Origin: Escherichia phage vB-Eco-KMB35
Sequence record: OR525704.1
Reading direction: 5' to 3' (one strand)
DNA: 43,891 nt
Shown here in pieces: positions 2,759-37,123 of this stretch (position 1 is the stretch's first letter; each line of letters starts with the position of its first letter). Position numbers and translations under genes: made by a program. Under the pieces are notes generated by a model, which was given only the letters and a program-made list of their open reading frames with translations, searched no databases and was not told where the DNA came from.

Positions 2759-3835
2759 ATGCTATTAACTTTAGCGCCACAGGGTTTATCTATGAGCTTA
2801 CTTACATCCCTAATCAGCCATCAGATATGGCTGCAACGCACCGCATCCGGTGAAGTGAAAGACCTCACGCCGTTCATTCAGGAGATAAGGGATGAAATCA
2901 AACGGCAGGTGCTGTTATTCGGTGACGACGGTCGCAGCACTGCGCGACTGAATAAACTGTTACGCGACCTGGAAGAAGCACTAACCGGTATTACGGGTGA
3001 CTGGCAAACAAAGCTAACAGACGACCTTAAGGAACTGGCGGCGTACGAGGCTGAGTGGAACGTAAAGACACTGACCGCCAACGTAGACGCGGAATTTGTT
3101 ACGCCTACCGCTGAGCAGGTATGGGCCGCTGCCGAGTTTCAACCATTATCATTGAGCGACAAGCCCGTTGATTTCACTAAGCTGATGGACGGCTGGGGTG
3201 AAACGGAAGTAGCACGTCTTGTAACTGGAGTTAAGATGGGCTTTGTGCAAGGTCAAACCACACGGCAGATTGTTAAGAATGTTGTTGGCGCTGGTGGACT
3301 AGCCGACATCTCAGAACGTAACGCGACTACGGTAATCCGCACCGCGCTGTCCCACGTATCCAACGAGGCCCGTAACGAGACGTACCGCCAGAACGACGAC
3401 ATCATCGAGAAATATGAGTGGGTGTCAACTTTGGACAGCCGTACCAGCACGATTTGCAGGGCCAGAGACGGAATGACGTGGGAAATCGGTAAAGGTCCGA
3501 TGCCACCAGCCCATCCTAATTGCCGAAGTACCACTGCACCGGTAATCAGTTCAGAGTTCGACTTCCTTGATAAAGGCGCAAAACGTGCGGCTAAGGGTGC
3601 GGACGGCGGTACTCAGGTAAGCGCAGACACCACCTATTACGAGTTCCTGAAACAACAACCAGCATGGTTTCAGGACCAGGCGCTCGGTCCTGTTCGCGGT
3701 AAGATTTTCCGTAACAGCGGTATATCGCCGGAAGAGTTTCGCGTAATATCTGTAGATGGTTTCGGGAATCCGCTCACGCTTAAGCAGATGGCGGAACTCG
3801 ATAAACGTGTTGCTGATTATCTGAAAGGGGAATAA
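2759..3835 (+). CDS. Head morphogenesis protein (MuF / SPP1 gp7-like minor head protein)
   Basis: 358-aa ORF after portal; position and size typical of MuF-like proteins. Confidence 0.6.
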   Translation: MLLTLAPQGLSMSLLTSLISHQIWLQRTASGEVKDLTPFIQEIRDEIKRQVLLFGDDGRSTARLNKLLRDLEEALTGITGDWQTKLTDDLKELAAYEAEWNVKTLTANVDAEFVTPTAEQVWAAAEFQPLSLSDKPVDFTKLMDGWGETEVARLVTGVKMGFVQGQTTRQIVKNVVGAGGLADISERNATTVIRTALSHVSNEARNETYRQNDDIIEKYEWVSTLDSRTSTICRARDGMTWEIGKGPMPPAHPNCRSTTAPVISSEFDFLDKGAKRAAKGADGGTQVSADTTYYEFLKQQPAWFQDQALGPVRGKIFRNSGISPEEFRVISVDGFGNPLTLKQMAELDKRVADYLKGE

Positions 3836-4296
3836 TGATGGGCTTTTTCAAAGTAACTGACGTACCGTCTCGTCGCGTAGTCCAGTACGCCCGCGTGTCT
3901 GGCTCTGGCGAGAACGTGGTATTTATTGAGGACGAAAGTGTACTCGGTACACCGGTAGATGATATGCCGTTTGCAGATAAAACCGGTATTGCGTTGCCCG
4001 CCGCCGGTATGCTTTATGAAATTCCGTATCTGGCGGACGCTGGCGACGTGTATTTCTCTGCGCAACCGCAGGACGCTGAACTGGCGGGCGGCAGCGCAAC
4101 CATCACTGTCGAGGTTAAGGCAGGCAAAGCGCCGTATTCTCTGACCTGGTACAAAGACGGTAAGGAAGTGGTGAATGCGCCTGAGGAGGCTCTGTCTCTG
4201 ACGGTTAATGCGGTCGGCGAATACTTCGTTAAAGTTACTGATGCCGATGGAGTAGAGGCGGTAAGCAAAGCGGCGAAGGTTACTAAGCCAGAATGA
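3835..4296 (+). CDS. Ig-like domain protein (possible head decoration or minor structural protein)
   Basis: 153 aa; motif TWYKDGKEV typical of bacterial Ig-like domains; start overlaps previous stop (TAATGATG). Confidence 0.5.
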   Translation: MMGFFKVTDVPSRRVVQYARVSGSGENVVFIEDESVLGTPVDDMPFADKTGIALPAAGMLYEIPYLADAGDVYFSAQPQDAELAGGSATITVEVKAGKAPYSLTWYKDGKEVVNAPEEALSLTVNAVGEYFVKVTDADGVEAVSKAAKVTKPE

Positions 4297-4297
4297 T

Positions 4298-4326
4298 AAA
4301 AGGCCCCATTATGGGGCCTTAGTTTT
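4298..4326. terminator. Bidirectional hairpin ggcccc-attat-ggggcc between convergent genes
   Basis: GC stem flanked by A-run upstream and ttagtttt downstream. Confidence 0.6.
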
Positions 4327-4529
4327 CAACGGAATCTTGTGTTTAAATCCTGCTCATGGACAACCCTCAGAACAGTGTCATAATCCCCGTATCTTCCAGG
4401 TTCAAATATATCTAATGCCTTGTAAGCAGACATTGCGTCAGGGAAAACCTGCAGAACCTTTTTAACCCGGCACAAGTCACCGTCGAACTCTTCATCGAAC
4501 TCTTGAACTACTTCGCAAATTGCATACAT
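4326..4529 (-). CDS. Hypothetical small acidic protein (67 aa), reverse-oriented moron-like gene
   Basis: ATG at 4529 preceded by GGAGGTG RBS and the 32-bp promoter element; ends at bidirectional terminator. Confidence 0.6.
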   Translation of the reverse strand: MYAICEVVQEFDEEFDGDLCRVKKVLQVFPDAMSAYKALDIFEPGRYGDYDTVLRVVHEQDLNTRFR

Positions 4530-4553
4530 TTTTCACCTCCTGTTTAAGTTAAC

Positions 4554-4585
4554 TGAATAGTACCCTATTATATTGGGGTGTGCAA
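4554..4585 (-). promoter_or_regulatory. Promoter element family A (TTGCAC-N17-TACTAT), copy 1
   Basis: Minus-strand sense ttgcacaccccaatataatagggtactattca; 32 nt identical to 13678..13709; directly upstream of gene 4326..4529. Confidence 0.6.
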
Positions 4586-4651
4586 ACTATTTATTTACGT
4601 ATTCCAGTTATTCCTCCGAATTGTAAATGTTGGAATAAACTATTCGAATAG

Positions 4652-4680
4652 TTGACTTTTCACTAAAAATATGATAAGCT
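4652..4680 (+). promoter_or_regulatory. Putative sigma70-like promoter TTGACT-N17-TAAGCT
   Basis: Hexamers at 4652-4657 and 4675-4680 with a 17-nt AT-rich spacer. Confidence 0.3.
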
Positions 4681-4858
4681 CCACCTGAGCTTGTGAAGTA
4701 TGAACAAGCGACCGCGGCGCGGGCAGGTAACGGAGCGGGACGTAAGTCCTGAGTGTAGTTACGCTGACGCGTTCGGAAGGGCCATACTCTATTGCTTGTG
4801 TAAAAAGTAACTGGTTTACTGAGATTACGCCGTTTCTATGTTTAAATGATAAGGACTA

Positions 4859-4888
4859 GCGCCCCGCTTTATGGCGGGGCTTTACTTA
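4859..4888 (+). terminator. Intrinsic terminator gccccgc-tttatg-gcggggc then tttacttat
   Basis: 7-bp GC stem and T-rich tail just upstream of the Rz start. Confidence 0.55.
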
Positions 4889-4904
4889 TCGAGAAAGGGG
4901 AAAC

Positions 4905-5291
4905 ATGAATCTTAAAGCAACTGTCGTAGCAGGAGCATGTTTCATCATCCTGGTTTACGCACACGGCATCTACCAGTATCGCAGCGGATGGAACGAAGGC
5001 CGGGCTAATCTCGTTTCGCAGCAACAGCAGAAAGCACAGGCTGAGTTAGCGAAGAAAACACAACGGCAGCAGCAGGATGAATCGAAGGCCGCCGCCGCTG
5101 ACAACGAAGGCAAGACGAAATCAGAGGTGATTACCCGTGAAGTCGTTAAGTACATTAAAACGCCTGGTCGCAGCGTGTGCACTTTTGACCCTGAGCGCGT
5201 GCAGCTCAAGTCCCGCGCCGTCGCCAACGCCAATTCCATCCCCGGATACGACGATGATGCAGCCGCCGTGCAAACTGGCGCAGCCAAGTAG
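4905..5291 (+). CDS. Rz-like inner-membrane spanin (i-spanin)
   Basis: 128 aa; N-terminal TM helix (VVAGACFIILVYAHGIY), Q/A/K-rich coiled coil, periplasmic Cys; overlapping +1-frame lipoprotein gene. Confidence 0.7.
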   Translation: MNLKATVVAGACFIILVYAHGIYQYRSGWNEGRANLVSQQQQKAQAELAKKTQRQQQDESKAAAADNEGKTKSEVITREVVKYIKTPGRSVCTFDPERVQLKSRAVANANSIPGYDDDAAAVQTGAAK

Positions 5292-5400
5292 CGACGCTGA
5301 TGAGGATTTGGCCGTCGACGTTCAGAATGCTGAATGCGTACGGCAACTGAGACTGAAAGTGTTCATGTTGCAGGATTACGTGAGGAATATTCTGGAATAG
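5137..5400 (+). CDS. Rz1-like outer-membrane lipoprotein spanin (o-spanin)
   Basis: 87 aa; signal peptide with lipobox LSAC, proline-rich mature part (SPAPSPTPIPSP); starts inside Rz in another frame and extends past it. Confidence 0.65.
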   Translation: MKSLSTLKRLVAACALLTLSACSSSPAPSPTPIPSPDTTMMQPPCKLAQPSSDADEDLAVDVQNAECVRQLRLKVFMLQDYVRNILE

Positions 5401-5482
5401 TTGCCTTGCATGTTGGAATAATTTATTCTTGACATGTAAATCCGGGTGGCCCGGATTCCAACGTCCAGGGGACATACTGACT

Positions 5483-7236: not shown

Positions 7237-7252
7237 GGTTAAGCTATAATCG

Positions 7253-7280
7253 AGAGGGACTTCGGTCCCTCTTTTCATTT
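7253..7280 (+). terminator. Hairpin agagggac-ttcg-gtccctc followed by ttttcattt after capsid gene
   Basis: Perfect GC-rich stem, tetraloop, T-run. Confidence 0.65.
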
Positions 7281-11875: not shown

Positions 11876-11904
11876 CTAAGGCCCCGAAAGGGGCCTTTTT
11901 TATT
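11876..11904. terminator. Bidirectional terminator ggcccc-gaaa-ggggcc followed by ttttttatt
   Basis: Perfect stem-loop between convergent major tail gene and minus-strand cassette. Confidence 0.7.
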
Positions 11905-13677: not shown

Positions 13678-13709
13678 TGAATAGTACCCTATTATATTGG
13701 GGTGTGCAA
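13678..13709 (-). promoter_or_regulatory. Promoter element family A, copy 2 (identical to 4554..4585)
   Basis: 32-nt exact repeat; TTGCAC-N17-TACTAT in minus-strand sense, upstream of 13652 start. Confidence 0.6.
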
Positions 13710-14233: not shown

Positions 14234-14595
14234 AAGCGCTGTATGAATTTGCGCAATGGTGCTTTGTCGACCGCCACAAACGTAAGCAATTCGACGACAT
14301 CGCGGCGGGCCACCAGGCGGCTTTGATTGCAATGGGCGTGATTAAAGAACCGCAGATGAAAGAAGCGACGGGGCCGGAATGCCCCGTTTCTCTTATCGAC
14401 GTGTTCGAGAAATACCGTGCCATTAAATTCCTACAGCGCGAAACAGATGATACTATCGTTATAATCCCGCGCGATGCGCTCAAATGGCAAGATTTGGTAG
14501 CGTTTCGTGATGTCGCCGGTTACGGCATAAGTTTGTTCGAAGCCGAGGTTATCATGGGCTTAGACGGAATATTTGAGGGCAGAGAAGATGGCTGA
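14215..14595 (+). CDS. Tail assembly chaperone frameshift extension (GT-like), reached by -1 frameshift near GGAAAAG 14224..14230
   Basis: Frame-1 ORF open from 14215 to 14595, overlaps chaperone 3' end and ends at tape-measure start; slippery A-rich run. Confidence 0.45.
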   Translation, partial: ETLGKVKALYEFAQWCFVDRHKRKQFDDIAAGHQAALIAMGVIKEPQMKEATGPECPVSLIDVFEKYRAIKFLQRETDDTIVIIPRDALKWQDLVAFRDVAGYGISLFEAEVIMGLDGIFEGREDG

Positions 14596-37091: not shown

Positions 37092-37123
37092 TTGCACACC
37101 CCAACATAATAGGATACTATTCA
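37092..37123 (+). promoter_or_regulatory. Promoter element family A (TTGCAC-N17-TACTAT), copy 3, rightward early promoter
   Basis: 30/32 identity to copies at 4554 and 13678 in opposite orientation; 30 nt upstream of ORF 37155. Confidence 0.6.

Follow-up and report, generated by a model that had tools for sequence, protein, structure and literature searches.

In bacteriophage lambda, the late promoter pR′ is followed by a 194-nucleotide (nt) '6S' transcript and by tR′, beyond which lie S, R, Rz/Rz1 and the head genes. In T7, the RNase III site R18.5 lies before gene 18.5, the equivalent of a spanin gene. R18.5 is a strong site, and R3.8, R4.7 and R6.5 are further RNase III sites of the same phage (bioRxiv 10.1101/106799). 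A different solution is represented by put of HK022, a cis-acting structured RNA that follows a sigma-70 promoter, requires no protein factor and involves the zinc-binding domain of the RNA polymerase beta′ subunit (PMC9378689). Here we consider an element that precedes the Rz/Rz1 spanin genes of Escherichia phage vB-Eco-KMB35 (sequence record OR525704.1); the whole stretch analysed, 43,891 nt, is referred to as the window. With a probability that we put at roughly 0.55, positions 4652-4904 represent a promoter and a folded 5′ leader of about 218 nt that heads the Rz/Rz1 transcription unit, acts in cis and belongs to a family not in Rfam. The first-pass annotation, made from the letters of the DNA alone, had seen in this place a GC-rich non-coding island of about 300 bp with either a small RNA (sRNA) or a micro-protein. 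The conserved promoter, the covarying fold of the plus strand and the near-invariance of the sequence all speak for a functional RNA, and the micro-protein found no such backing. The description as GC-rich has to be narrowed: 4600-4888 as a whole is 44% GC with flanks of 31-33%, and the truly GC-rich stretch is about 100 nt long, not about 180 (60% in 4700-4790 and 57% in 4687-4800, against a window mean of 50.9%).

Since the folding energy of the whole leader is unremarkable (z = -2.2 only), the case for a real RNA rests on conservation and covariation. Relatives of the locus fall into at least five sequence types, A to E, and this window belongs to type A. The minimum-energy fold of 4711-4778 is a hairpin of three tiers, H2, H3 and H4 (-31.1 kcal/mol, z = -2.75), compared with -19.6 kcal/mol and z = -1.2 for the reverse strand of the same sub-sequence; moreover, the core of type B folds independently into the same shape (-30.8 kcal/mol). 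Within type A, 97.2% of base-pair cells are paired and four pairs are changed on both sides, a result matched by none of 500 shuffles, with slid controls reaching 28-37%. Trained on type A alone, a covariance model recovers all type-B loci (E = 1e-8 to 1e-11) and detects no second copy within the window. When types A and B are aligned together, 95.4% of cells are paired, versus 76% in shuffled and 31-45% in slid controls, and 15 of the 28 pairs are changed on both sides, although this alignment was fitted to the model and, A and B being two clades, the cell counts overstate the number of independent events.

Changes that count as independent events (loci carry L numbers) illustrate how the stems have been maintained. 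U-A takes the place of the pair C4718-G4771 in L019/L090, in L030 and throughout type B; GGAC/GUCC of H4 has become GUGC/GCAC in L019, L030 and L090; G4737-U4750 is C-G in L010 and L029; and U4728-A4761 is G-C in L030. Single changes compatible with wobble pairing occur in L025, L026, L034 and L039, while the sixth pair of H4 in type B is either U-A or C-G. The tandem G-U pairs 4716-4773 and 4717-4772 are conserved and account for the bulk of the G-U cells (28 of 326), which would be A-C on the opposite strand. Together with the GNRA caps, these conserved pairs identify the element as an RNA of the plus strand, not a DNA feature. The internal loop GGAGC/(U)GAGUGUA, that is GGAGC/UGAGUGUA, is invariant although the neighbouring stems change.

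The remaining parts of the leader are conserved to different degrees. H1, the 5′ hairpin, is paired in 100% of cells in type A, including U-A to U-G changes; changes in its loop lengthen the stem in L030, and its place in type B is taken by ACGCU/AGCGU. Downstream of the core, the single-stranded block CGGAAGGGCC recurs in A, B and D and UAUUGCUU in A and B, while the linker between them is the stretch of greatest variability within type A. The tentative hairpin H5 shows within type A five different loop changes, two wobble-compatible stem changes and two changes that break a pair (one in mid-stem, the other at the stem end); no clear counterpart of it was seen in type B.

The conservation of the leader stands out against its surroundings. 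Over the 37 type-A loci compared for identity, 4687-4888 is 98.1-98.5% identical, and in the flanking head morphogenesis, Hoc, Rz and capsid genes identity is 71-86% at third codon positions and 95-98% at the first two. DNA of the operator and promoter immediately upstream of the RNA (94-95% in type A) is less conserved than the RNA itself. In those Salmonella phages where third positions in the flanking genes have fallen to 48-79%, the RNA is 95-100% identical; likewise, neighbouring genes of Salmonella Jerseyviruses are 72-84% identical to the window, versus 95-97% for 4600-4904. Comparison with Salmonella phage S100 delimits the conserved block most sharply, with a single substitution in about 4675-4925, a stretch that extends across the Rz ribosome-binding site. 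Counted per 25 nt, the operator and promoter bins (4600-4674) have 1-5 substitutions, and Rz further downstream has up to 10. The limits of this substitution-poor block thus map the constraint to the transcribed leader and not to a whole recombination tract.

The element is also widespread. A BLAST search with 4530-4904 returned 181 phage records, of which 178 cover at least 80% of the query, almost all at an identity of at least 94%, and Salmonella Jerseyviruses are among them; in a collection of 50,697 phage records, type A is present in 181 and type B in 269. Relatives in IMG/VR and GenBank add up to the types already mentioned, each located immediately 5′ of Rz, and in every type a non-coding stretch of 300-500 nt precedes that gene. 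Type A, to which this window belongs, is found in Kagunavirus and some Jerseyvirus genomes, type B in SETP7-like Jerseyvirus, type C in VSiA-like Cornellvirus and Pantoea phage AH01, type D in FSL SP-031, phiEap-2 and Hafnia TS33, and type E in three IMG/VR contigs (L235-L237) that carry another operator repeat. The last ~115 nt are common to types C and D. The type-A model reaches type D at E = 0.6 only and does not reach type C; a model of A and B plus one type-D sequence gives E values of 1e-4 to 1e-8 for type D (0.03 for L231), in part because of how it was built, and of no better than about 0.4-0.8 for type C. Type D is therefore a probable relative of the A/B leader, and type C a possible one.

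Several apparent further carriers were set aside. Dhillonvirus has a similar head-gene order, but its spanin gene overlaps the preceding gene and there is no leader. The tRNA-Ser annotated under a type-B match in phage ER21 is on the opposite strand, in the variable gene slot and outside the element. Metagenome matches to the operator pattern TATTCCARTTATTCC are chance only, the model being positive in none of the 80 loci listed, and bacterial-genome matches to the two-block pattern are high-GC chance matches apart from one contig of 738 bp with a type-B element. This contig (L257, NZ_JACVEL010000048.1), from a Taishania pollutisoli assembly, contains a type-B leader scoring 98.6 bits with model R2 and most likely represents Jerseyvirus contamination of that assembly.

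The promoter hexamers TTGACT and TAAGCT with their 17-nt spacer lie where the first-pass annotation had put them, and a TG at 4672-4673 adds extended -10 character. A consensus promoter scan did not flag this promoter, because its -10 hexamer fits the consensus at 3 of 6 positions only. Support comes instead from conservation: the pattern T(T/A/G)GA(C/T)T-N17(TG)-TA(A/C)(G/C)CT is present in 59 of the 61 loci of types A, B and D compared for promoter architecture, with the base between TG and the -10 hexamer freely variable. Transcription is predicted to start near G4687.

The hairpin at the other end of the leader had been read as a strong terminator. Its upper part, 4861-4880, indeed has the stable GC-rich stem-loop of an intrinsic terminator and, with the tail TTTACTTATC, is the top-ranked terminator-like site in both scans (-17.9 kcal/mol, z = -4.4). 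The hairpin itself is strong, and its structure is conserved, but the terminator function is only partly borne out: the tail is not free, since CUUAUC (4885-4890) pairs with GAUAAG (4848-4853), and it is base-paired in every type. Nearly all type-A loci have the U-tract TTTACTTA, with 5 T in 8, and types B, C and D have 3 T in 8. With a decent U-tract in type A only, what the types have preserved appears to be a stable hairpin with its base 3 nt from the Rz ribosome-binding site rather than termination, although a partial stop of transcription is plausible for this phage. The three-tier form is present in 39 of 40 type-A loci and in 12 of 12 type-B loci, the fortieth type-A locus, the deletion variant L031, having a perfect 18-bp hairpin, and types C and D have an analogous GC-rich hairpin. 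Compensatory changes turn C-G into U-A within type A and G-C into A-U within type B, occur also within C/D, and separate the lower stems of A (GAUAAG/CUUAUC) and B (UAUACG/CGUAUA). Further strong terminator-like hairpins on the plus strand of the late block lie at 7252-7273, 11878-11897 (bidirectional) and 14367-14388, after the capsid gene and to either side of a cluster of reverse-strand genes.

The position of Rz ties the RNA to the spanin genes. Its start at 4905 was borne out, with the Shine-Dalgarno GGGG at 4897-4900, and AGAAAGGGGA-AC-ATGAAT at the start is common to types A and B. Only 16 nt separate the hairpin tail (4888) from the ATG, and another hairpin (4300-4320) lies upstream, so Rz/Rz1 must be transcribed through this RNA, which is therefore at minimum a spanin leader. 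It follows that the hairpin, which had been expected to attenuate read-through into the spanin genes, has to allow substantial read-through, since there is no room for a promoter of Rz itself. We envisage that transcription would begin at the extended -10 promoter, near 4687, beneath a GGAATAA-type operator. The nascent RNA would form the 5′ hairpin, the three-tier hairpin with its invariant internal loop and GNRA cap, the single-stranded blocks and a second three-tier hairpin. Acting in cis, the leader may set how much transcription reaches the spanin genes, and possibly the head genes beyond, as well as the stability and translatability of the spanin mRNA. The terminal hairpin might serve as a leaky stop, as a processing and stability signal, or as both, and in type A the molecules halting there would give a discrete by-product RNA of about 200 nt.

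Several points weigh against this interpretation. The 5′ end of the leader, its 3′ end and the read-through are all predictions. Many of the changed cells between A and B go back to one ancestral split and do not represent independent events. In types B and D the predicted start lies within the 5′ hairpin, so that H1 may not be universal in the RNA. Recombination, which clearly carries this tract from one genus to another, accounts for part of the identity across genera, and Hoc is also raised (87-88%). Moreover, no covariation-backed terminator/antiterminator or anti-Shine-Dalgarno pairing was found in the leader; in the candidate alternative pairings AAGGGC/GCCC..UU and CGGCG/CGCCG, inspection showed that L037, L050, L030 and L021 change one partner only. 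Finally, the near-invariance of loops and linkers exceeds the needs of a simple attenuator or stabiliser and hints at a specific partner, be it RNA polymerase, a nuclease, a protein or a target RNA. It is this degree of invariance that keeps alive both a trans-acting sRNA and put-like antitermination.

A free-standing sRNA of about 200 nt (4687 to ~4888), acting in trans on host or phage mRNAs or sequestering a host protein, with the spanins expressed by leak-through, would account for the conserved promoter, for the 5′ terminal hairpin and for the stable 3′ hairpin followed by UUUACUUAU in type A. The conserved single-stranded AAGGGCC, UAUUGCUU and GAUUACGCCGU could be seed regions, and an identity of 96-100% between phages of E. 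coli and Salmonella is what a conserved host partner would lead one to expect. However, the RNA is not a self-contained unit, as the same transcript has to continue into Rz. Types B, C and D, with their paired tails, have no usable U-tract, and the long U-tail of the Hfq-binding type is missing. Complementarity to the phage's own genome extends to at most 11 nt, the level of chance, and a blastn search of E. coli genomes with the element gave no match. We regard such an sRNA as unlikely, though a serious contender. Rather less credit goes to a bolder proposal, a regulatory RNA that works on its own and constitutes a new class in virulent phages of enterobacteria: either a put-like rider through the terminators of the 19-kb late block, or a riboswitch-like or protein-binding sensor that times the spanin and late genes. 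Its near-invariance would then reflect docking onto a conserved host machine. More doubtful still is that the leader heads the late operon as a processive antitermination signal whose RNA modifies the polymerase, as in HK022 put, or loads a factor, as with lambda Q. The layout resembles the one described for putL, with two adjacent bulged stem-loops right after a sigma-70 promoter and then a hairpin ahead of the first late gene (PMC9378689). The polymerase would then read past the terminal hairpin and past later terminators, candidates for which are the additional late-block hairpins on the plus strand, and extreme sequence constraint would suit docking of the RNA onto the host polymerase. No antiterminator of the Q family is annotated in Bas70, a phage with 100% identity at this locus, and among 20 small proteins scanned there was no Pfam antiterminator match (two helix-turn-helix (HTH) regulators, DUF551 and a sub-threshold NinH-like match were obtained). 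The lack of a recognised protein antiterminator is consistent with an RNA-only mechanism. Against the proposal, none of the 20 proteins scanned is Q- or N-like, and any -10-like pause element in the early transcribed region is weak and differs from type to type. When put is compared by description, no relationship in sequence is apparent, and the core measures ~90 nt and not ~70. In addition, a second operator-like site and a conserved hairpin precede the scaffold gene, and in types C and D a reverse gene stands between Rz1 and scaffold; the head genes thus probably have their own promoter.

The three readings that remain carry progressively less weight. That both three-tier hairpins are RNase III (or RNase E) processing or stability signals like the T7 R sites, where cleavage would part the leader from the spanin message and leave protective hairpins behind, is improbable as a full account. 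Both are irregular duplexes of ~17-22 bp with internal loops, the general form of a T7 site, and both span the two helical turns of an RNase III substrate (17 bp of H2 and H3 plus 5 bp of H4 in the core; 6+3+8 bp in the terminal hairpin, which lies 3 nt from the ribosome-binding site in all types). Yet the upper stem of the core, a putative substrate, has 5 bp only, and processing alone leaves the invariant loops and linkers unexplained; this explanation overlaps with the cis-acting leader rather than excluding it. Very improbable is a purely DNA-level element (operators, an origin, a packaging site or a recombination hotspot), whose conservation would be a side effect of recent horizontal transfer. 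In its favour, the tract is a mosaic in which type A occurs in Salmonella phages whose other genes are 72-84% identical, and operator-like repeats stand on both sides of the Rz/Rz1 module. Against this, covariation is strand-specific, the tandem G-U pairs are conserved, the plus strand is the more stable one, and the hairpins are capped by GNRA tetraloops; furthermore, the substitution-poor block begins near the -10 hexamer or the start and stops at Rz, with the adjoining operator and promoter DNA less conserved.

We give the least credence of all to an Arg/Cys-rich micro-protein. The open reading frame (ORF) in question had been described as 38 codons at 4700..4816 but has 36 (4700-4810), and the earlier remark that it has no convincing Shine-Dalgarno is accurate: none precedes its ATG. 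About 30 of 40 type-A loci keep the frame open, and several GenBank records list it as a hypothetical protein. Nevertheless, it is shortened to 9-17 codons by 1-nt indels in L004, L010, L025, L026 and L029, frameshifted in L019 and deprived of its ATG in L015 and L030, so that eight type-A loci in total have a truncated, frameshifted or start-less version. All the substitutions observed are non-synonymous, no ATG-initiated counterpart is present in the representatives of types B-E that were checked, and no Pfam or PHROG family was matched. Its start codon sits in the loop of H1 and the frame crosses the covarying stems. The ORF is a by-product of a G-rich structured RNA.

Coordinates of the leader and of adjoining features in the window
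Feature	Position	Strand	Description
Hairpin	4300-4320		terminator-like flag on - strand only; + strand tail has ~4 T in 8
Small reverse-strand gene	4326-4529	-	adjoins the interval of interest upstream
Operator-like GGAATA/TATTCC cluster	4600-4651		TATTCC 4600, TATTCC 4609, GGAATA 4632, palindrome AACTATTCGAATAGTT 4638-4653
Extended -10 promoter	4652-4680	+	-35 TTGACT 4652-4657, 17-nt spacer, TG 4672-4673, -10 TAAGCT 4675-4680
H1, 5′ hairpin	4689-4709	+	GCUUGU/ACAAGC, 9-nt loop; -7.2 kcal/mol, z = -3.3
36-codon ORF	4700-4810	+	judged spurious, no part of the functional element
Core three-tier hairpin	4712-4776	+	tiers H2, H3 and H4
H2	4712-4714/4774-4776 and 4716-4721/4768-4773	+	lowest tier of core hairpin
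H3	4724-4731/4758-4766	+	middle tier of core hairpin; G4763 bulged
H4	4737-4741/4746-4750	+	top tier, GUAA cap
Single-stranded blocks	4777-4800	+	(CGG)AAGGGCC 4777-4783, variable linker 4784-4789, UAUUGCUU 4790-4797
H5, small hairpin (tentative)	4806-4820	+	AGUAA/UUACU, loop CUGGU
AU-rich linker	4823-4847	+	conserved block GAUUACGCCGU 4823-4833 plus AUGUUUA; types A and B align
Terminal three-tier hairpin	4848-4890	+	whole fold -21 to -23 kcal/mol
Terminal hairpin, lower stem	4848-4853/4885-4890	+	GAUAAG/CUUAUC
Terminal hairpin, middle	4857-4859/4882-4884	+	UAG/UUA
Terminal hairpin, upper	4861-4868/4873-4880	+	8 pairs, 7 of them G-C; loop UUAU
Rz ribosome-binding site	4894-4907	+	AAAGGGGA; begins 3 nt past the base of the terminal hairpin; Shine-Dalgarno GGGG 4897-4900, ATG 4905
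Rz	4905-5291	+	
Rz1	5137-5400	+	

The window represents a phage of the Guernseyvirinae, genus Kagunavirus; over positions 4300-4910 it matches Escherichia phage Bas70 at 100% identity and other Kagunavirus genomes at 97-99.8%. On the plus strand, portal is followed by the genes for head morphogenesis protein and Hoc-like decoration protein (3835-4296) and, beyond the leader, by Rz, Rz1, scaffold and major capsid. Between the terminator-like hairpin after Hoc and the leader operator, 4321-4599 is a variable slot for reverse-strand accessory genes. In this phage it is occupied by a 67-aa protein of phrog_27256, function unknown; elsewhere by a beta clamp, a Dam methylase, a RusA-like resolvase, a regulator or tRNA-Ser, and in SETP7-like phages it is empty. 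A 32-bp repeat, GAATAGTAYCCTATTATRTTGGGGTGTGCAA, occurs at 4554-4585 (+), 13678-13709 (+) and 37092-37123 (-) in copies 94-100% identical, each followed after some 20-45 nt by the Shine-Dalgarno and start codon of a gene that points away from the repeat. On the strand of that gene the repeat contains TTGCAC...TATAAT, which makes it a candidate promoter or 5′ untranslated cassette for accessory or early genes. The same 32 nt are present in Klebsiella phage vB_kpnM_D1.

The operator-like cluster lies directly upstream of the -35 hexamer; it is 94% identical within type A, below the identity of the RNA, and its motif TTATTCCARTTATTCC...GGAATAA is retained in types A, B and D. In the whole window, clusters of GGAATA/TATTCC (palindrome GGAATAA-N-TTATTCC) occur at two sites only, 4600-4650 and 5384-5425. 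They bracket the module of leader and Rz/Rz1, and their conservation extends to other genera, among them Cornellvirus, where such a site stands upstream of the scaffold gene. Probably, both are operators of one phage regulator, and the candidates are two small HTH proteins, Bas70_0050 and Bas70_0054. In type E (L235-L237), repeated ACTCGCAA/TTGCGAGT about 330 nt upstream of Rz replace the GGAATAA operators, which suggests swapped regulator specificity at the same locus. Another palindrome, AAGCTC-CACCT-GAGCTT (4676-4692), overlaps the -10 hexamer and the predicted start and could be an operator or a pause element; type B has at this position a direct repeat of its own -10 hexamer, TACGCT-AAC-TACGCT. 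At the far end of the module, a hairpin at 5437-5457, between TTGACA at 5429 and the scaffold gene, differs between genera by the compensatory changes AATCCGGG/CCCGGATT, ACACCGGG/CCCGGTGT and AAGCCGGG/CCCGGCT. On the strength of these changes, we take it to be a second structured RNA or regulatory hairpin at the start of the head genes.

Searches for known RNA families returned nothing that would name the element. Rfam release 15 gave no match at gathering thresholds in the window or in eight loci of types B-E; in a permissive search of 4300-5000, the best sub-threshold matches scored 11-18 bits against thresholds of 35-160. ARAGORN detected no tRNA or tmRNA, and full-text searches of the literature found no description of the element. 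A K-turn, a loop E, boxA, a CsrA site, an anti-Shine-Dalgarno and an antiterminator were considered by inspection, and for each the support was insufficient for a claim.

Phages of the Guernseyvirinae (Kagunavirus, Jerseyvirus, Cornellvirus) are among the most often isolated phages of E. coli and Salmonella and are widely proposed for therapy and food safety. In the records that carry types A and B, however, this locus either lacks an annotation or is wrongly entered as a hypothetical protein of 36 aa, even though the leader is the most constrained stretch of its neighbourhood and marks an unstudied step of late-gene or lysis control. A compact motif backed by covariation is well suited to a new Rfam family. 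Bas70-76 are available in a public collection, and public RNA-seq exists for the Kagunavirus vB_Eco_K1B4 (PRJNA939978 / PRJCA028359). For phage engineering, the adjoining variable gene slot offers a natural insertion site, provided that the leader stays intact.

How does this leader relate to the systems described to date? With the late leader of lambda it shares the succession of a promoter, a leader of ~200 nt and a terminator-like hairpin right before lysis and late genes, and in type A a short terminated RNA would be an expected by-product. On the other hand, the analysis recognised no Q-like protein and identified neither a Q-binding nor a pause element at this locus, the RNA fold itself is under selection here, and this phage is virulent and unrelated to lambdoid phages. 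The likeness to HK022 put would lie in a cis-acting structured RNA with two adjacent irregular stem-loops that are promoter-proximal and very highly conserved and would need no dedicated protein (PMC9378689). In the leader they start at about +3 and span ~90 nt, versus ~70 nt in put, the two being compared by description only; no sequence similarity is apparent, the leader is larger, and put belongs to the early operons of temperate phages. The T7 RNase III sites, one of which bears the name of gene 18.5, resemble it in that they are irregular hairpins of two turns, have internal loops and lie in the intergenic leaders of late genes, but they differ in the layout of the internal loops; moreover, this leader has a host-type promoter of its own. 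Finally, intrinsic terminators and attenuators in 5′ leaders have in common with it a GC-rich hairpin (-17.9 kcal/mol) and behind it UUUACUUAU, 14 nt ahead of the ribosome-binding site; here, however, the hairpin is kept but the U-tract is lost in B-D, the tail is paired and no antiterminator alternative was found. None of the defining molecular features of the lambda, HK022 put and T7 systems that could be assessed at this locus was seen in the leader. We class the element as a new RNA family within a general kind that is already known, the structured leaders or small RNAs of phages; it is one whose layout comes closest to lambda pR′-6S-tR′ and HK022 putL and whose hairpins come closest in form to the T7 RNase III sites.

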